A stretch of DNA of 64,000 bases, from IMG/VR virus record IMGVR_UViG_3300025154_000086, positions 1,895 to 65,894 of that record; one strand, given 5' to 3'. The translations under genes were made by a program, and so were the position numbers. Below are positions 2,027 through 62,554 of the stretch, piece after piece (position 1 is the first letter of the stretch; each line of letters begins with the position of its first letter). A model generated the notes under the pieces. It did not search any database. It saw only the letters and a list, made by a program, of their open reading frames with translations, and was not told the DNA's origin. Source of the DNA: a virus (taxonomy: Duplodnaviria; Caudoviricetes).

Positions 2027-5000
2027 TTACTCGGATTTCTTTTTATTAAATTCTTTTCCAAATGCTTTTATTGCCGGTTTCTTCTCTGTCTTTTCTTCCA
2101 CAATATTCTTTGTCGGGTTCACAACCTGTTCAATGTCGTTTTCTTCACCGGAAAGGTTGCTAAACTTACTGCCGAATTGAAATTGATATTTCTGTTCTCC
2201 TCCCGGTGTTAGGTTCATATTCTCATCAATCAATCCGTGCATCTTCAGCATACCTAAAGCAAAAAAATCTTGTTCCGGATCAATCTCTCTGTCTATTCCT
2301 TGTTCCTTAAATCCAAGCATTAACTTTAACTTTTCGCTTGTTGGTAACTCTTGCGTATTTCCGCTTTCGGCTGGTTGGGGTTCTGTTTCGAGGGCTTTCA
2401 ATAATTTTCTCCTTTGATATTTTAAATATAAGGATTTCCCCATTTGCTTCAAACCAAATTTCTTAAATTCTTCGTGAAGTTCCGGGTGCAGTATTTTTTC
2501 TTGCCCGTCATTTTTTATATAAAATAATTTTGCCCCTTGCCCTAATGGTGCGCTGTTATCGTAAACACTAAAATTATCAAAGTTATCCTTCAGTTGAAAA
2601 AATGCCTTGTGTGTGGGATAATCACCAAACAATTTCTTATACAGATCAGCGCCTATGCTTCTGCCGCCGCTTTCCCCTCTTGCTTTGTCTCGCTCAATTC
2701 CCTTCTCAATCGGTAAATGAATAAATGCAGCGTTCGCTTGAAAAGTATCGCTGTTAACCATGTAAAGAAGATCGTTTAAATTCTCCGTTCCCTTCATCGT
2801 AACGTCATAAATTACATCTTTCTTTTCGCGTATAGCCTCACGGACCAAATGCTTTGCAATATTTGAACTTTCCTCATGCAATTCCCAAGGCTTTAAGTCA
2901 ACATCAATTTTAGATATTCCCCTCTCCTCAGCTAACATATATTTTATGCTGTCGGGATCTATCAAAACTTTATTTTTATAAAACTCTCCTCCAAGCGTTG
3001 TGCTCTTTCCGCTGCCCGGCAAACCGCCCGTAACCCACATTTGCCCCAAACCTTCTCCGGCTTTGTTAAACAGTTGTTTCTTAATCGTGTTAAACTCCGG
3101 CACCGCTTCCGCTTCTATCTTTAACCCTAAACTCATTTCCGTTTCTCTTAACGGATTTGGTTTCTTCGCGCACTCATCAAATGCTTTGGCGTACTCGCCG
3201 GTTGCAAACTGCAACTCCTTAAGCAAAGGATCGTTTTCACCCTTGCTTATCGTTACCCTTGTAAAGAAATTTTCTTTACCCTTTATATTATCCAGCCCGT
3301 TACTATCTATTTCATATCCCTTCTTTTTCAATTGAGCAATTACCGCCTTTGCCTTAGCAGTACTTTTTACCTCAACCGCGCCAATTAATGCCGAGTAAAT
3401 TTCCGGCTTATCATCCTTTGTAGCGTTTCTTTTTATTTCCTTAAACATTACATCTGATTTTTTAATTATCCTATCTCTTACGCTAAAATCTATTCCTTCG
3501 GCTTCTGCTGCATTTTCAATATCACCGAAAAACCAATCCTTTTGCCCGTTTGCCAACCTTTCGTAACTATCGGCTTTTTTCTGCCATTCGTTAAAATTCC
3601 GCATCTTCTCTAAGTTTCGTGCATGTTTGGCGTTCTCTTCCGCTTTTTCCATCTCTACCGGTTTGTTGGGTATTTTGCTTTTCTCTTTCGTCGATATTAA
3701 AATATTCCTATCGGCAAACTTAAAACTTATCCCATCTTCCGTTTGTACAACTGCCTGGTTCTTTGGTATAGATACAAGCGAATCAAACCCATTTGCCTCT
3801 TTTAAGAACAAAGAATAATTACCTTCACTGTTCTCATTCACAAGCTGTAACGCTCCCTCACCTAACAAATTCCCTTCGTTATCCTTTAGCAATACACTAT
3901 TGCCAATTTTATTCTGCAATAACTCAAATGCATTGGCCGGAGCTATTATCTTCCCTCCGCTTTGCTTTCCTTCTGCCGACTGCTGACTGCTGACTGCCGA
4001 TTGTCCACTGCCTACTGCCGATTGATCCTTGCTCGCCAATTTCCAATGCGCACCCTTGCCGGACTTATCCCGTGTTAGCCTTAACGTGCCTCCGCGTCCT
4101 TCTTTCGTCTGCCCTTCCTTTTGATATGGCTGCGCTCCAAACATTGATATCTGCTTACCAAAGGCTTTGAATAAATTTTTGAAGATGCTTTTATTTGAAT
4201 CGCTGATATCTTTTGGCAATAAATCTTTTATTTCTTCGTTAATCTCTTTTATTTTTTGCTGCAATTCATCTTCCCTTCTAAAACTTAATTGTTTCGTTTT
4301 ATGATATCCTCTCATATTTGTGCCAAACCCAATATTGGAAACCTTCTTGTGATTTTTAAGCTTCTCTGAATAAAGTCTGTCCTCAAGACCTTCCTTACGT
4401 TTTTTCAACTTTGATAGTTTTATCTCGTTTTCAGAATTGGCTTTCTGATAAGCTGAATATCTAATCTCCCCACCTCCTTTTACAGAAATAAACGGCTCTC
4501 CGTCTTGATATTTCCCGATTTTAAATTCTTGTTCAGGATATTGTTTCTTAAACCAATCAGCAAATGGTTGATATGTCCCTTCGACTAAAATATTTTTTGT
4601 CTTTTCGCCATAACTTTCTAAATCTTTTTTTAAAGATGCAGTGAAAGGTAATTCACTTATAAGTGAAGTTTCCTTTCCCAACTCCGGATAATCCCTCAAC
4701 ACTTCCGGCGGCACGGGTTTGCCTTCTTTTATTGCTTGCTGAACGTGTCCCTTGTGGTTCTGGTTTGATGTGAAATTTCTCCCATATATTTTTTCAATAT
4801 CGTCCTTCATCTTTACTATATTAGAAAAATCCATCCCTTTTGTATTTTTAACTTCATCCCATAATGGCTGAAATATTTTATTGTATTCTGTTTTAGTAAA
4901 TTCCCAAGGTTGTTTAGTAACCAAATCCGGCTCGCTCTGAACCGGATTCTTTACTGTTTCGATACTTGATCGATCAGCTATTTTTTTTTCATATTCTGCA

Positions 5001-51640: not shown

Positions 51641-53263
51641 TTAACTTTTTTGCAAATTATTTTGTAGCCATCTTCGCCTCCGCATTAACTCCGGATAAGT
51701 TTCAAGCTCAATACTCCTTCCCCCAATTTTTATCCAGTCCTTATGCCCTATTTGCCAATCCACAGTGCCGTTTCCTCTATTCTTGGCATAAACCATAGCT
51801 AAATCATTTATCTCTTTCCTAAGCGTCTTTATCTTCTCAAATACCGGTATCTCCGCTTCAGTGGGCTGCTGTACTACGCTCTGTGCTATCTGTGCGGCTT
51901 TTGCTTTTGGCAAACCAAACATTGTGGAAATCTTATCCGTAAAATTTGTTTTTATCTCCATCGTGCCGGTTACTTCTGCTGAAATTACTTTGAAATCCTT
52001 TTGCTCCTTCTCTCTCGGTTCAATTTCTTTTCCGAACAAATCTTTATCATATTTCTCTTTGGCAGTATTAAGCGCATGATCTCTTTCCTGTTCAATTTCT
52101 CTGGCAAATCTTACCAGCTCGTGCCGCTTAGGAATGTACAAATATGCGTCCTGACTTTTAAGATGTGCCAATACTCTTATAAACCTTCCCGTAACCTGTC
52201 TGAAGAATAATTCGCTCTCTACATTTGTTGCATAAACCCCAACACGCAAACGAGGGATGTCAACCCCTTCCGAAACCATTTTAACGCTAATCAACCATTT
52301 ATCTTTTCTTCGCTTGTACTCCTTAATATGTTTGCTCGCATTCTTATCGTCACTCACCGCTATTACCGGAGATTCGCCGATAAGTTCGAATATCATCTTC
52401 TTAATTCTCGCCGCATGCTCTTGATCGATCGCCAAGACCAATCCTCCCGCATCCGGGTGACTGCCTCTCCTTATTTCATTTAATTTTTTATCAGCGTCAA
52501 GAAAGAATTGCTTCATAAACTCACCGAACGGATCTAATGCGGTTCTTAATCTTTCACTTTCTCTTGCCTGATTGATCTGCTCTTCAAAATTATGCTTATA
52601 AGTCACTCCGTCCGTCTGCCAAGTCATTATTCCATCATAAGCTGGAAAGTATATCGCCCTGCAAACATTATCCTCAACTGCTTGCTGGTAGGAATAAACA
52701 TAATCCGAAACACTAACATCATTTACATATTTCACAAAAGGGATAGGATTATTATCTCTTCTAAATGGCGTTCCACTTAATGCTAATCTAAAAAAAGCAT
52801 TCTCAAAAGCCGTTCTTAGTGCATCTCCCCATGTTTTACTTTCCCCCGCATGATGGATTTCATCCAATATTACCAAGGTACTTGTGCTATCAGTAAAATG
52901 TTTATGAATATCCGCGTCCATACCAAGTTGCGCATAGGTAAGCACAACTCCGTGGTAGTCGCTTCCTTCTTTTCCAATACGGTTCTCCACCATTGGGTCA
53001 AGATCAATTCCGTAAAGATGCGCGTCTTCAGCCCATTGCTTTTTTAAGTGCTCTGTTGGAACCACCGCAACAATTCTTTTTATGTAGTGCATAAAATAGA
53101 GTTTGTGTGCAAACCGCAAAGCCGTTCGGGTTTTACCGGATGCCGGCGTTGCTACAAGCAAAGCATCCTGCTCTTTGGCTTTCACTTTTCGTATTACTAT
53201 TTCGTTGGCGTCCTGCTGCCAATCACGCAGCGGATATTCCCAAGGAATTAATGATCTTGGCAT
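51641..53263 (-). CDS. SF2 DEAH helicase (ResIII/UvsW-like)
   Basis: ATPASGKT, DEIHH, SGTPFR, EGVDIP and Q..GR motifs. Confidence 0.88.
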   Translation of the reverse strand: MPRSLIPWEYPLRDWQQDANEIVIRKVKAKEQDALLVATPASGKTRTALRFAHKLYFMHYIKRIVAVVPTEHLKKQWAEDAHLYGIDLDPMVENRIGKEGSDYHGVVLTYAQLGMDADIHKHFTDSTSTLVILDEIHHAGESKTWGDALRTAFENAFFRLALSGTPFRRDNNPIPFVKYVNDVSVSDYVYSYQQAVEDNVCRAIYFPAYDGIMTWQTDGVTYKHNFEEQINQARESERLRTALDPFGEFMKQFFLDADKKLNEIRRGSHPDAGGLVLAIDQEHAARIKKMIFELIGESPVIAVSDDKNASKHIKEYKRRKDKWLISVKMVSEGVDIPRLRVGVYATNVESELFFRQVTGRFIRVLAHLKSQDAYLYIPKRHELVRFAREIEQERDHALNTAKEKYDKDLFGKEIEPREKEQKDFKVISAEVTGTMEIKTNFTDKISTMFGLPKAKAAQIAQSVVQQPTEAEIPVFEKIKTLRKEINDLAMVYAKNRGNGTVDWQIGHKDWIKIGGRSIELETYPELMRRRRWLQNNLQKS

Positions 53264-53536
53264 TTAGTTATCTTTTTTACTTTCTGTCCGATTAAGAAAA
53301 TCTTCAACATCTTCTTTTTGTTCCAATAATTTTTTTGTTAAGAAAAAATCTTCTAAAATATCTCTTGCAACTTTAGATGGATTTTGGTTTAACTCTTTAG
53401 CTAAAGATTCAAGAACGTTGTTAAGTTCAGAATCAATTCTAATTTGTAAAGTTTTACCTTTTTCTTGTAATACAGAAGTTTGTATTACGCAATCGTTTTG
53501 CCTCTTATGTTTACCGTAATAACGAGTAAATTCCAA
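53264..53536 (-). CDS. ribbon-helix-helix DNA-binding protein
   Basis: LQIRID...L..LA......S...R..L pattern. Confidence 0.6.
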   Translation of the reverse strand: MEFTRYYGKHKRQNDCVIQTSVLQEKGKTLQIRIDSELNNVLESLAKELNQNPSKVARDILEDFFLTKKLLEQKEDVEDFLNRTESKKDN

Positions 53537-53565
53537 TCTTTTTCTCCTTGCGGGTTAAGTATTAG

Positions 53566-53883
53566 TTAGCCAGCATTTTTGCTCAGTTCTCTTTTCTTAT
53601 CACAACCAAACGGTTTACCCGCAATGGTTGTAATTACTCTACAAGTTGGGCAAGGTCTTGCACTCCAATTGTGCGGGTCTTCGTACAATAAGTCTATTAA
53701 AACCTCAATCAATTTTTCATATTGTCCGCAAAAATCATGGCTAACTCGCGGCTCTTGCTGAATTGCTAACTGATTTGCATATTGTTCCATTGCCGTCAAC
53801 GCATCGTTATATCGCACAGAATCTTTTAGTTCTGCATGGATTCTCCCAACAATGTCACACAATATTTGTTCTTTAGTTTTCAT
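53566..53883 (-). CDS. cassette 1 ORF, starts inside att site 1
   Basis: AAAGGA RBS before ATG 53883; stop lies in GTTA; CPTC motif. Confidence 0.7.
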   Translation of the reverse strand: MKTKEQILCDIVGRIHAELKDSVRYNDALTAMEQYANQLAIQQEPRVSHDFCGQYEKLIEVLIDLLYEDPHNWSARPCPTCRVITTIAGKPFGCDKKRELSKNAG

Positions 53884-53939
53884 AATATTTCCTTTCTTAA
53901 TTAGTTTCCGCAATCAGCAAAGCCGCCACTACGTTATAA
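53739..53939 (+). repeat. attC-like site 1
   Basis: GGCTAAC TCGCG GCT[C]TTGCTG[A]ATTGC...GCAATCAGCAAAGC CGCCACTAC GTTATAA. Confidence 0.8.
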
Positions 53940-54167
53940 ATCTTTTTGGCTAACCTTTTTAAAGTGTTTCCATTTGGGGTTTTCAGTTAATAAAATTGGG
54001 TTTGCATCAATTACATCTTGCAAGTCTGGGTGTCTATTTTTACAATTTCTATACATACAAAACCAGGGGGTTGATCCGCCATAATTCCCAGCATAATACA
54101 ACCCCTTCCGTTTACACGAAGGGCAAACATATCGTTCAACGCTCCACCCAGTTTCAACACCTTTCAT
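53934..54167 (-). CDS. cassette 2 ORF, zinc-ribbon protein
   Basis: CPSC...C...C; ATG overlaps the leader stop. Confidence 0.7.
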   Translation of the reverse strand: MKGVETGWSVERYVCPSCKRKGLYYAGNYGGSTPWFCMYRNCKNRHPDLQDVIDANPILLTENPKWKHFKKVSQKDL

Positions 54168-54259
54168 ATGCCCGCCAAAAAATTTATAACTCGCAATTCT
54201 AAAAGACAAAAACTGTCTTTTATCGTTTCGGGTTTTGCTATTGTTTTAATTTGTTCCAT
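54164..54259 (-). CDS. 31-aa leader peptide encoded in att site 2 (MEQIKT...RVINFLAGI)
   Basis: AAGGA upstream; ATGA overlap with the cassette 2 gene. Confidence 0.55.
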   Translation of the reverse strand: MEQIKTIAKPETIKDSFCLLELRVINFLAGI

Positions 54260-54309
54260 TTAATTTATTCCTTCTTCGTTTTTGCTTTTAAGTTGCCACT
54301 ACGTTATTT
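54184..54309 (+). repeat. attC-like site 2
   Basis: TTATAAC TCGCA ATT[C]TAAAAG[A]CAAAAAC...GTTTTTGCTTTTAAGT TGCCACTAC GTTATTT. Confidence 0.82.
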
Positions 54310-54720
54310 TGATTTTTTGGCTAATATATATTTACTGTAGTTGGTATCACCAGTTTCGATGTTTTCAAGATTCCCAACATTATTCGTTTTCCACTTGCCT
54401 TTTTCTAAAAATACTCTGTCAAATCTGCCATGCCATTTGCCTGCTCTTTCTACTTCCGTCCCATCACTATATTTAGTGGGTAGGCAAATACAGCAAAGTT
54501 TCATCCCTTTCCTATCTTCAATTCCAGTCCAGTCATAATCGTTTGGTGTCCATTTAGCGGTCATCATTGTACACGCTGTATTCTCCACGCAACCACAATT
54601 ATCACATTGTATCAAACTCATGTCTAACTCCCGCCAAAAATCAAAATAACTCACAACTCTAAAAGACTGCAAATCTGTTTTTGGCATTTTGTTATTTGAT
54701 ATTTTATTAATTAAGTTCAT
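54304..54720 (-). CDS. cassette 3 ORF, Cys-rich, starts inside att site 3
   Basis: CDNCGCVENTA...LCCIC...GKWHGRF. Confidence 0.7.
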   Translation of the reverse strand: MNLINKISNNKMPKTDLQSFRVVSYFDFWRELDMSLIQCDNCGCVENTACTMMTAKWTPNDYDWTGIEDRKGMKLCCICLPTKYSDGTEVERAGKWHGRFDRVFLEKGKWKTNNVGNLENIETGDTNYSKYILAKKSK

Positions 54721-54764
54721 TCTCTTTTATTCTTGGCAGCTTTTAAGTTGCAACTACGTTATAA
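54644..54764 (+). repeat. attC-like site 3
   Basis: AAATAAC TCACA ACT[C]TAAAAG[A]CTGC...GCAGCTTTTAAGT TGCAACTAC GTTATAA. Confidence 0.82.
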
Positions 54765-54989
54765 ATCTTTTTTATCGGGAATTTGTTCCAGCAAGTATGG
54801 TGGCATGTGGAATATCTTATCCTCACGCCGTATCAACCTAGTTAAATTGCTACCATCATCATAAACGCACCTTGCTACACCACGACTAATCTGTAATATT
54901 TTAATCGGTTTTTTATCATTGTCCAGTACGTTGTAAAATCTTTTTTTGAATATAAATTCTAAGAAAATGTTTATGTCAACTTTTCTCAT
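54759..54989 (-). CDS. cassette 4 ORF
   Basis: 76 aa; stop lies in GTTA. Confidence 0.65.
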   Translation of the reverse strand: MRKVDINIFLEFIFKKRFYNVLDNDKKPIKILQISRGVARCVYDDGSNLTRLIRREDKIFHMPPYLLEQIPDKKDL

Positions 54990-55054
54990 ACAACCGCTAA
55001 AAAATTTATAACTGCAAAGAGGTATGGTTTAATATGTTTAAGTTTATTGTCCAT
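54986..55054 (-). CDS. 22-aa leader peptide in att site 4 (MDNK...AVINFLAVV)
   Basis: AGGA upstream; ATGA overlap with the cassette 4 gene. Confidence 0.5.
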   Translation of the reverse strand: MDNKLKHIKPYLFAVINFLAVV

Positions 55055-55096
55055 TAAAGTTGTTCCTAAAGCCGCTGCAAATAAGTTTCCACACTG

Positions 55097-55417
55097 TTAT
55101 ACTTCATCTTCATCCAATTCATCAAAATCTCCGTCATTATCAAATTCATCAAATATTTCGTCTGTTATATCCAATTGCTCCATTACTGCTTTAATGTTGC
55201 GCTTTTGTAAGTGTTTACCATCAATAATCTCTAAACCGATAATATATGCACGTTTAATAGCGTCATCCAGCTCATCCATTTCAACTTCAAAATAAGGTGT
55301 CTCGTCTACCAATCCTCCCCAGTGTATTACCTTAACTTCCCATCCATTCGTGCTGTAGTTCATTTCCAGATCGAAATATTCTTGTAAAAATTTTAAATGT
55401 CTTACAAATTCTTCCAT
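55097..55417 (-). CDS. acidic hypothetical protein ending at the last GTT core site
   Basis: 106 aa ORF. Confidence 0.65.
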   Translation of the reverse strand: MEEFVRHLKFLQEYFDLEMNYSTNGWEVKVIHWGGLVDETPYFEVEMDELDDAIKRAYIIGLEIIDGKHLQKRNIKAVMEQLDITDEIFDEFDNDGDFDELDEDEV

Positions 55418-55457: not shown

Positions 55458-56714
55458 CTACAACTCTTCCGGCACTTCCACCGGCGCAATATTTTGCTCA
55501 ATCAACTCAATCTTTTCACGATAACTGCGTTTAAGTATTTTTTCATCGCCGTTTGTCTTAAACACTTCACCTCTTCCGGTAATTGTGCAATACTCGGTAA
55601 ATTCTTCAGCTAAATTTTTTGCCTCCATTATTTTTACGCTGCGGCTTTCCCTCTGCACAGGAACAATGTCAGCCTCAAGAATGGCATCCGCCCCAAACCT
55701 TGCCTTTAACTCTTCCTTTTTTGCAGCGGTAATTTGATCTTGCAAATCTTCTTCAATCTTATACTTTATCTTTACCTCAGCATTCTCCGGCACTTCCTGG
55801 TTGATCACAAACTCGCCGTTAATAAATTCCGCCGTTACATTTACCATTGGCCGGACTGTCTTAAACTTTATTTTCTCTGATGAAACTTTTACCCCTTCAT
55901 CTGTCTGATCGAATTTGCTAACGATAAAATATTTCTGTTCCGTCTCCCCAAAATTGCAATTGTAAAGAGAGGAGGTGTAAAACATATCCGGCTCAAACTC
56001 CTGCCAATTGTGAATATGACCAAATGCGTAAACATCGGCTTTGGCTTTCCGTAATGATAGAGGGGAAATTATTATATCTTGCCCGGTTAATGGTTGTCCT
56101 GTGCTTAATCTGCTTCCTCTTACGTTACCGTGGAAGGTAAAAGCTTTTGGACATTTATATCTATTGTTCGTTATTCCGAACATATCCATTAATCCGTCAA
56201 ACACTTCTCCAAACTCTTTATTATTATCATCAATGCTCATGTCTCTAACGATCATTCCCTTTGTGGGATAAGGCATAAGGTTTACAATAAATTCCGGTTC
56301 TTCTTCATAACCGGTTTCTTCATCACGCAAAATATCAACACCAAGTATATTACTAACGTGATCGTACAGCGCAAGCGAAACCGGGTATTCGTAAGCAAAA
56401 ATGTTCTCCCTCAATTGATGGAGAAGACTAATACTCCCGGCGTAATCGTGGTTATTGTTACCCTTATTGATGATAATTGCTTTTACATGCTTTGCCAATT
56501 CTTTTAGATATTGGAAACCGTACTCAACACCGCTGTTTTCGCCGAAGTTTTGTTTTGTTTCCCAAAAATCTCCGCCATGAACTATGTAATCAACATGATT
56601 GTTTTTTACATATTCCACCATTTGGTCAAGCGATTCACACGCTTTCCTTTTTCTTTTCGGGTCTTTATCCAAATGCCAATCAGCGGTAAATAAACCTATA
56701 AGTTGATTTTTCAT
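55458..56714 (-). CDS. sbcD: SbcD/Mre11-like metallophosphoesterase nuclease
   Basis: ADWH, GGD, GNNNHD and FGHIH motifs. Confidence 0.88.
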   Translation of the reverse strand: MKNQLIGLFTADWHLDKDPKRKRKACESLDQMVEYVKNNHVDYIVHGGDFWETKQNFGENSGVEYGFQYLKELAKHVKAIIINKGNNNHDYAGSISLLHQLRENIFAYEYPVSLALYDHVSNILGVDILRDEETGYEEEPEFIVNLMPYPTKGMIVRDMSIDDNNKEFGEVFDGLMDMFGITNNRYKCPKAFTFHGNVRGSRLSTGQPLTGQDIIISPLSLRKAKADVYAFGHIHNWQEFEPDMFYTSSLYNCNFGETEQKYFIVSKFDQTDEGVKVSSEKIKFKTVRPMVNVTAEFINGEFVINQEVPENAEVKIKYKIEEDLQDQITAAKKEELKARFGADAILEADIVPVQRESRSVKIMEAKNLAEEFTEYCTITGRGEVFKTNGDEKILKRSYREKIELIEQNIAPVEVPEEL

Positions 56715-62157: not shown

Positions 62158-62427
62158 TCATGCTTTCACCTCATTCAAAAAGTATTCAGACTTCCCCCTC
62201 AGAATTCCTTCTTCAAAACTTTCTTTACCAATCTGTTGGTTTGCTTCTCTTAGGGCTTGATTTTCTTTGGTAAGTCTTGCACATTCTTCGCGCTCTACCG
62301 TTAAAGATTTTTTGGTTGCTTTCATGCGGTTTTCCGTAACAATAGTTATATAGGTAGCCGCAAAAAGATGAATAATAACTCCTACAACGAATGCATAATA
62401 AAGGATGGAAATTAGTTCGGCGTTCAT
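62158..62427 (-). CDS. TM plus coiled-coil protein
   Basis: 89 aa with RBS. Confidence 0.6.
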   Translation of the reverse strand: MNAELISILYYAFVVGVIIHLFAATYITIVTENRMKATKKSLTVEREECARLTKENQALREANQQIGKESFEEGILRGKSEYFLNEVKA

Positions 62428-62554
62428 GTTATTTTCCTTTGAATTTATTTTCTAATTCCTAATTTTTAATTCCTAATTAACTGAACCGCTCGAACGTTGC
62501 TCGAACAATACCCGAACGATAACATTAGGAATCTTTTATATATTAAGTTACGTT

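Follow-up and report, generated by a model that had tools for sequence, protein, structure and literature searches.

Organization of the array

The subject of this work is an array of small genes separated by hairpin sites in a phage genome (Duplodnaviria; Caudoviricetes). The array lies in a 64,000-nucleotide (nt) stretch, hereafter called the window, of IMG/VR record IMGVR_UViG_3300025154_000086 (positions 1,895 to 65,894). The window is nearly the entire 65.9-kb record, whose completeness was estimated at 73%. Its long open reading frames (ORFs) lie almost all on the minus strand, on which all window coordinates are given here, and its G+C content ranges from 35 to 43%. The sequencing runs containing this stretch were groundwater and soil metagenomes, with no RNA run listed among them; four of these runs yielded only short contigs, in which no joints were seen. 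What is unusual is a whole family of phage sites, including those of the window, in which the hairpin loop is often predicted to encode the start and the N-terminus of the next protein.

The array is bounded by a gene for an SbcD-like nuclease (55458-56714) and a helicase gene (51641-53263); an SbcC-like gene adjoins. Reading along the minus strand, the first gene, of 106 amino acids (aa), is followed by three units in which sites 4, 3 and 2 precede genes of 76, 105 and 77 aa, respectively. After site 1 there is a gene body about 58 codons long; site 0 separates it from an Arc-like gene of 90 aa, behind which lies the helicase gene (Table 1). Each site starts with the stop codon of the preceding gene within ..ATAAC, and ends with GTTA followed by a T-run and GGCGG. 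No family match was obtained for the first gene of 106 aa. A DNA search of the phage collection returned no match, and nothing relevant was found in Rfam, where the single match was a chance snoRNA (E = 0.37). We also counted transcription signals in the array. Promoter-like sites were not in excess (9 vs 8.3 in shuffles), and terminator-like sites numbered 0 vs 1.2 in shuffles. These counts are compatible with read-through from upstream, which they do not by themselves demonstrate.

Table 1. Genes, hairpin sites and loop ORFs of the array, in window coordinates (SD, Shine-Dalgarno).
Feature	Coordinates	Strand	Details
First array gene, 106 aa	55097..55417	-	Directly after SbcD-like gene; stop inside R'' box of site 4
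Site 4	54994..55105	-	R'' TAAC 55099-55096; R' GTTA 55012-55009; TAAC-to-GTTA 87 nt; model score 67.9 bits
Site 4 leader ORF	54986..55054	-	22 aa; AGGA 9 nt upstream; Val frame; ATGA overlap with 76-aa gene
76-aa gene unit	54759..54989	-	ATG without SD motif; stop inside R'' box of site 3
Site 3	54631..54767	-	TAAC 54761-54758; GTTA 54650-54647; 111 nt between
Site 3 loop ORF	54622..54720	-	ATG 54720 without SD motif; 33 codons in frame with 105-aa gene
105-aa gene unit, PHROG 11861	54304..54621	-	Own GGAG 6 nt before ATG 54621
Site 2	54172..54312	-	TAAC 54306-54303; GTTA 54190-54187; 116 nt between; 106 bits
Site 2 leader ORF	54164..54259	-	31 aa; AGGA 9 nt upstream; Val frame; ATGA overlap with 77-aa gene
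77-aa zinc-ribbon-like gene unit	53934..54167	-	ATG without SD motif
Site 1, long class	53726..53942	-	TAAC 53936-53933; GTTA 53745-53742; 191 nt between; 18-nt L stem
Site 1 fused ORF, 105 aa	53566..53883	-	Residues 1-46 inside hairpin; V47 = core GTT; 48-105 = body
Site 0, array end	53525..53582	-	R'' GGCTAAC complementary to site 1 R'; then AAGGAG, TTG start, first codons MEFT
Arc-like gene, 90 aa	53264..53536	-	Start inside site 0 module; homologues with same upstream module in L026 and L134

The array ends in a module of about 45 nt (R''-like box, AAGGAG, TTG, MEFT) that was found in the window (53525-53582) and in contigs L003 (5290-5335), L026 (approximately 164-215) and L134. It leads into an Arc-like gene in three phages and into a different ORF, of 33 aa, in L003.

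Open reading frames in the four window loops

In each of the four loops (sites 1 to 4), an ATG on the coding strand opens a reading frame that crosses the 3' arm of the hairpin, as an earlier note made from the window sequence alone had claimed. The probability that a loop ATG ORF reaches R' in shuffled sequence was 0.10 to 0.18 per site. An AGGA motif precedes the ATG at sites 1, 2 and 4 and no Shine-Dalgarno (SD) motif precedes that of site 3, again in agreement with the note. Its further claim that all four frames read the core GTT as valine holds at sites 1, 2 and 4. At site 3 it fails: the homologous core is read aGT Tat (Ser-Tyr), and the valine noted earlier belongs to a different GTT, 6 nt upstream of the aligned core.

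Fusion of the loop ORF to the gene had been proposed for sites 1 and 3, and the frames are indeed continuous at both. At site 1, the 105-aa ORF starts at ATG 53883, with AGGA 6 nt upstream, and ends at a stop codon inside the next R'' box (site 0). The long loop-encoded head that had been put at about 40 codons comprises 46 ahead of the core valine. A conserved cysteine of the fused protein is encoded five codons past this valine with no start codon in between, and therefore translation of the site 1 gene must, on this sequence, begin in the loop. We read site 1 as a true N-terminal fusion. At site 3, ATG 54720 is in frame with the 105-aa gene and gives 138 aa in total, and this extension is probably not used. 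PHROG 11861 covers only residues 34 to 136 of the 138-aa ORF, and the homologues of the 105-aa gene in L004 to L006 begin at the equivalent of M34, the same start being seen in every homologue found. Because these homologues start at M34, behind the gene's own SD motif, the extension is probably an idle head. Site 3 is a paralogue of site 2 (72% identity over 141 nt), and the loop ATGs of the two sites align.

Sites 2 and 4 carry the 31- and 22-aa leaders that the earlier note had described, each closing in an ATGA overlap. The leader of site 2 runs from ATG 54259 to a TGA overlapping ATG 54167 of the 77-aa gene. That of site 4 starts at ATG 55054, encodes the peptide MDNKLKHIKPYLFAVINFLAVV and ends at a TGA overlapping ATG 54989 of the 76-aa gene. 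Both gene starts agree with homologues: a 95%-identical homologue of the 76-aa protein (P0006) has the same start methionine, and a 65%-identical homologue of the 77-aa protein (P0005) begins with the same MKG. These two are the only array genes without an SD motif, and they are exactly those behind SD-bearing leaders. Translational coupling of leader to gene is the natural reading of sites 2 and 4, since their layout matches that of ORF-11 of attI1 and of the attC short ORF described in a review (PMC8876359). We infer that the leaders are translated and that coupling raises expression of the gene behind them.

Covariation of the hairpin sites

The sites share one plan. TAAC (R'' box) pairs with GTTA (R' box), followed inward by a spacer of 6 nt on the R'' side vs 2 nt on the R' side and by a six-pair stem (L'' and L' arms). 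When eight sites, taken from the window and three relatives, were aligned independently with MAFFT, 97.4% of the cells were paired, vs 24 to 42% when the partner column was slid. Five of the six pairs of the L stem showed compensatory changes, giving the imperfect hairpin with an L box that characterizes attC sites. Among 40 aligned matches to the covariance model described below, 96.2% of cells were paired (25 to 41% when slid) with 87 compensatory cells, in an alignment that was fitted to the model and so favours pairing. These patterns indicate that the sites form an attC-like hairpin family with covarying stems. Hairpin is meant here in a qualified sense, because support for the stem comes from covariation and not from single-sequence folding: single-sequence DNA folds of sites 1 to 4 were not better than shuffles (z of -1.28, -0.46, +0.58 and +2.50). 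The 18-nt L stem was found at site 1 alone. In the window, a 13-mer of the R box with two mismatches was not enriched (15 matches vs 15.5 expected). An inverted-repeat scanner that we tried as a site finder performed no better than shuffles and missed known sites, and it was abandoned.

Other conserved positions were seen in the family alignment. In many sites, the L'' stem is followed on the 5' arm by the motif ..TAA(A/C)CCGATTGCGGAC, and the 3' arm carries GCAATTCGG; these shared motifs suggest that a further stem, or else a site bound by a protein, is conserved. A pattern, approximately RGYRTG, is also seen in the 6-nt spacer. Elsewhere in the window, positions 62358-62544 (minus strand) gave a weak model match (E = 0.4-0.6) with no L stem; it was misaligned and was dropped from the count. 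This region precedes a small ORF resembling a membrane protein and has a site-like 3' end (GAGTTATT..TTTTTGCGG in frame), and it may be a decayed site or a chance resemblance.

A family-wide census of loop ORFs

To extend the analysis, a covariance model trained on the eight sites (window and three relatives) was run on 36 loci retrieved by DNA pattern. The model yielded further arrays on unrelated phage contigs (L115, L117, L126, L134 and L118). The resulting census comprised 39 family sites from 10 sources, in which a loop ORF was defined as a frame that starts at a coding-strand ATG, 15 or more codons ahead of the core, and remains open up to it. Loop ORFs were present in 27 of the 39 sites vs 5.1 expected when the loop interiors were shuffled (binomial P about 1e-15). 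Site 4 of the window, which is short and fails the 15-codon cut, was added by hand, bringing the number of loop ORFs to 28. Their frames relative to the core were not random, as the earlier note had predicted: 18 of the 28 read the core GTT as valine, while four read xGT TAx and six xxG TTA (binomial P = 8e-4 vs 1/3). Restricting the count to 31 confident sites (E <= 0.011) left 24 with a loop ORF, of which 16 were in the valine frame, and seven without. An SD motif stood before 16 of the 28 loop ATGs, vs 18.4% at random background positions; for comparison, it was found at 43 of the 63 gene starts of this phage. Among ATG-started fusions, 12 of 13 had the motif.

The sites fall into two size classes by the distance from TAAC to GTTA, namely 87 to 127 nt and 184 to 253 nt. 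Long sites mostly have an SD motif and an ATG at +48 to +68 nt after TAAC, and their ORFs, for which no other start is plausible, continue for 58 to 74 codons past the core until the next TAAC. Short sites mostly have the ATG at +41 to +52 nt after TAAC and a leader of 22 to 35 aa. These regularities bear on whether the loop ORFs are simply chance open frames in AT-rich spacers. Single loops had a 5 to 24% chance of such an ORF in shuffles, and the opposite strand held one in 12 of the 39 sites. Against this, the observed excess on the coding strand, the conserved position of the ATG, the enrichment of SD motifs and the frame bias make chance a highly improbable source, and we take the loop ORFs to be a real and non-random feature of these sites. 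The broader statement that each loop would serve as an expression module for any cassette was not supported by the census, given the confident sites that have no loop ORF and the short leaders without an SD motif considered below. An apparent complementarity between loop start signals and the genes' own start signals, striking in nine sites, was dropped because every gene needs one start somewhere.

Two further observations concern individual sites. A very basic ORF of 47 aa occupies the long-class loop at L126 (829-1042). Its stop codon falls within L', 14 nt short of the core, and the ORF is therefore neither a fusion nor a read-through leader. In other groundwater samples, contigs from sequencing runs X5 (a 1162-nt contig) and X7 have only window positions 54173-54207, the 35-nt L'-R' arm of site 2, in common with the window, with four mismatches. 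Both flanks differ in these contigs, including a downstream start with its own GGGAG, and they add further members of the site family in this habitat.

Exchange of heads and bodies

The earlier note had treated the sites as recombination modules, and two lines of evidence support it: the complementarity of gene ends and the turnover of arrays between close phages. When the 12 nt after GTTA were compared with the complement of the 12 nt before the next TAAC, the mean agreement over 27 neighbouring site pairs was 8.15 of 12. The mean was 4.2 when the two ends of a single site were compared and 4.27 over all pairs, and none of 20000 permutations was as high as the cognate value. The R' and R'' extensions of the 105-aa gene unit are complementary at 15 of 15 positions, and the ends of the last body (site 1 to site 0) match over 19 nt (89%). 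Such cognate R'/R'' complementarity is, as a sequence pattern, the signature expected of integron cassettes with a crossover at G|TT. As for turnover, searches based on the helicase recovered only three IMG/VR relatives, along with four loci from metagenomes, of which two were new and short. Phages with helicases 91 to 97% identical to that of the window carry quite different genes at this position, bounded by the same kind of site.

The units of exchange could be delimited on other contigs. On L115, a gene body is duplicated within one array (99-580 and 3109-3590; 97.7% identity over 483 nt). The match starts precisely with the core G and is lost within some 6 nt of TAAC; the hairpins differ on both sides. 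We also found five pairs of homologous hairpins without flank homology, and two pairs of homologous bodies with unrelated hairpins. The L115 duplicate and these mismatches between hairpin and body homology show that hairpins and bodies reassort at both edges, TAAC and GTTA. A cassette made of a gene and its trailing attC site does not describe this arrangement, as the two L115 body copies carry different hairpins behind them, and the loop does not simply belong to the cassette in front of it.

Exchange at the core also creates different proteins. The N-terminal halves of proteins P0002 and P0003 are unrelated, while the remainder of the two, starting at VKPACEQY, is identical. The 105-aa fused protein of the window matches them in its C-terminal half only, the junction being the core valine (for P0002 and P0003, at the protein level). 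A free-standing version of the site 1 body, of about 63 aa, occurs in phage L029, which has no such sites; a search of genome contigs with the C-terminal domain gave no match. For the corresponding fused ORF of L003, the match to Pfam DUF7446 is confined to the part downstream of the core. At the DNA level, L117:5888 and L115:1185 have a common body (76% over 248 nt) and different heads. Conversely, L117:5888 and L115:3557 have a common head (73% identical over SD, ATG and 20 codons, with no indel) joined in the same frame to different bodies. Together, the proteins and the L117/L115 swaps bear out the proposal that shuffling yields new N-terminal fusions, and homologues without the loop-derived N-terminus were found for sites 1 and 3.

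These boundaries also bear on whether the hairpins act mainly in messenger RNA (mRNA), as a ribosome block or processing signal, with translation of the leader opening the stem as a switch, as proposed for class 1 attC sites, and shuffling being secondary. Covariation cannot separate DNA from RNA pairing, and attC stem-loops are described as hindering ribosomes, a block that a short attC ORF relieves (PMC8876359). The wobble pairs of the L stem lean to the coding strand (9 G.T vs 3 A.C), a difference that is not significant. However, the gene-specific R'/R'' complementarity and the boundaries placed exactly at the core G and TAAC are signs of DNA recombination, for which a role in RNA gives no account. 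RNA and DNA roles are not mutually exclusive. As the main function of the hairpins, an action in mRNA appears improbable to us.

Relation to integrons

The attC core consensus is an inverted pair of R'' RYYYAAC and R' GTTRRRY (PMC9892861). In the present family, TAAC and GTTA are nearly invariant and only two of the 39 7-mers fit GTTRRRY strictly (GTTAGGC and GTTAAAC), most reading GTTAT... The cognate complementarity and the left edge of the L115 duplicate at the core G both agree with a crossover at G|TT. In attC sites, an unpaired spacer and extrahelical bases mark one strand. The spacer asymmetry of the phage family is constant, and its 6/2-nt layout differs from the canonical attC layout.

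Among the relatives, the only integrases were an 84-aa C-terminal fragment of IntI and ordinary phage integrases. The IntI fragment (TIGR02249, 3.9e-29, profile positions 246-314 of 315) is encoded at L001 5733-5987, and also in G002. In that relative it closes the array, immediately following a hairpin site and oriented like the cassettes. No host can be assigned from it because it is 55 to 71% identical to IntI proteins from many phyla. The best locus for the fragment (L032) had no similar array. At L009 (416-2429) and L010 (1441-3460), an ordinary phage-type tyrosine integrase of about 350 aa lies beside a 326-aa protein. By eye, the latter resembles a large serine recombinase that lacks the catalytic domain and retains the C-terminal recombinase and zinc-ribbon part. 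The genome G003 was classed as a provirus.

Proposed explanation

We propose, with a probability of roughly 0.6, that the array is made of separately reassorting gene bodies and hairpin modules, in which heads give one of three outcomes: fusion, coupling or an idle state. The proposal builds on what was observed: the anatomy of the array, the covariation of the sites, the excess and frame bias of the loop ORFs, and the exchange of heads and bodies. Each body would be bounded by its own inverted repeat, with GTTA and an extension on one side and the complementary extension and TAAC on the other. A hairpin module would consist, in order, of TAAC, the 6-nt spacer, the L'' arm, the loop, the L' arm, the 2-nt spacer and GTTA. 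Many modules would bear a head in the loop (SD motif, ATG and 14 to about 65 codons) that is read through L' and the core into the next body. In the fusion outcome, a startless body would obtain its start signals and an N-terminal extension from the head, as at site 1, where they would be joined at Val47. In the coupling outcome, the body has an ATG without an SD motif and the head ORF stops on it (ATGA), so that terminating ribosomes could restart (sites 2 and 4). In the idle outcome, the body has its own SD motif and the head would have lost its own (site 3).

Several observations weigh against this proposal. Site 4 makes a poor hairpin, with only three of six L-stem positions pairing. Eight of the 39 census sites trained the model that found the rest, and since the sites share ancestry, they are less independent than the binomial and shuffle P values assume. 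The valine frame is partly forced, since GTTATAA closes one of the other frames (TAA) and GTTAG another (TAG); it is the sole frame open in every core variant. Regarding the enzyme, no PF00589 match was found in this genome (73% complete), so that no intI gene was seen beside the array, and the five further contigs had no integron-type integrase. The covariance model run on 80 bacterial IntI loci gave only one match (E = 6.2). We count these results, together with the departure of the core from GTTRRRY and the reassortment at both edges, against plain membership in the integrons; an unchanged integron mechanism is also questioned because exchange is two-sided.

The short leaders raise a further difficulty. 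Ten of 14 lack an SD motif and mostly precede genes that have their own, and for this reason coupling matters at no more than a minority of sites, while many of the leaders could be relics. Those of sites 2 and 4 may themselves be relics, if heads are kept open by selection elsewhere on fusions to startless bodies, the 76- and 77-aa genes start by themselves without an SD motif, and ATGA is a by-product of a fixed distance between core and ATG. The core-to-ATG segment is of equal length in sites 2 and 4, so that any valine-frame ORF must end at that TGA. A TAG made of the spacer TA and the core G terminates three leaders, and of the 63 genes in this phage, 20 lack an SD motif at the first ATG. 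On the other side stands the coincidence noted above, by which the two SD-less array genes are exactly those behind SD-bearing leaders, and for all 11 leaders that read through the core, the distance from the stop to the following start codon falls in the range -8 to +12 nt. We consider this account unlikely as a whole, and a serious rival to coupling for short leaders in general.

A bolder extension of the head-and-body proposal is that these arrays are a natural system for combining protein parts. Mobile heads and startless bodies would be joined in a fixed frame at TAAC/GTTA, on either side of the hairpin, by a structure-specific recombinase, a mechanism unlike the one-sided exchange of integrons. 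Such arrays would express chimeric small proteins, perhaps for host takeover or anti-defence. We hold this extension only tentatively.

Comparison with known systems

Integron cassettes are usually described as a gene plus a silent recombination site, and to our knowledge help with expression from the site itself is known only for attI1 and a few attC sites. In the literature on attC sites, integrons and phage cassettes, we found no description of attC loops holding a protein start and N-terminus. In the present family, one part seems, judging from its sequence, to serve both gene shuffling and gene expression. Because the sites carry start signals, and often the first part of the protein, a single recombination event could both place a gene and set how, and as what fusion, it is made. 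It might offer phages a concrete means of producing small accessory proteins and trying them out. For annotation, it means that gene callers will misplace starts or miss bodies that have no start codon.

Among cassettes described in phages, the promoter-terminator cassettes of T4-type phages called PeSLs reportedly have stem-loop repeats that flank small variable genes, and they are held to mediate modular shuffling. PeSLs are said to carry transcription signals and are thought to act by homologous recombination. Unlike them, the present array has no excess of promoters or terminators, and each gene has its own complementary ends.

Clusters of attC sites lacking integron-integrases (CALINs) and other integron parts have been found in phage genomes (Qi et al., 2023; PMC9892861). 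The likeness lies in rows of attC-type sites between small phage genes without an integrase, and in the DNA methyltransferase cargo seen here in L026 and at L115:547. The parts of that paper examined make no mention of start signals or coding sequence inside the sites. The present sites depart from the GTTRRRY core and have a 6/2-nt spacer.

Fused cassettes such as the aacA4 variants, in which a start-less cassette ORF uses an upstream start and acquires a variant N-terminus, are covered in PMC8876359. Fusions of that type appear there as rare accidents arising from loss of an attC site, whereas those of the phages pass through an intact attC-like site. The same source describes a short ORF inside an attC site that relieves the block imposed by the hairpin on translation (Jacquier, 2009, via PMC8876359). 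The two cases are alike in that termination and reinitiation through a site-borne ORF would couple cassettes. As reported there, however, the attC short ORF concerns single resistance cassettes; in the phages, it is a feature of the whole family, with the ATG at a set position (+41 to +52) and loops of up to about 65 codons.

The closest parallel is offered by ORF-11, ORF-17 and ORF-18 in attI1 of class 1 integrons (Hanau-Bercot, 2002; Papagiannitsis, 2017; both via PMC8876359). According to the review, ORF-11 is a short ORF with an SD motif and an ATG inside the site, spanning the crossover and taking its stop from the inserted cassette, and it is held to feed ribosomes to a start-less cassette gene. 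Sites 2 and 4 have leaders laid out in exactly this way, with gene starts backed by homologues. Set against the same account, the phage ORFs differ in lying in hairpin loops all along the array instead of in a single attI site, and in a frame that passes the core GTT as valine, whereas ORF-11 stops at a TAG within the core. At many sites, moreover, the phage loop ORF would be a true N-terminal part of the next protein, unlike ORF-11. Taken together, the phage system is best filed under site-borne translational coupling and phage attC-like arrays.

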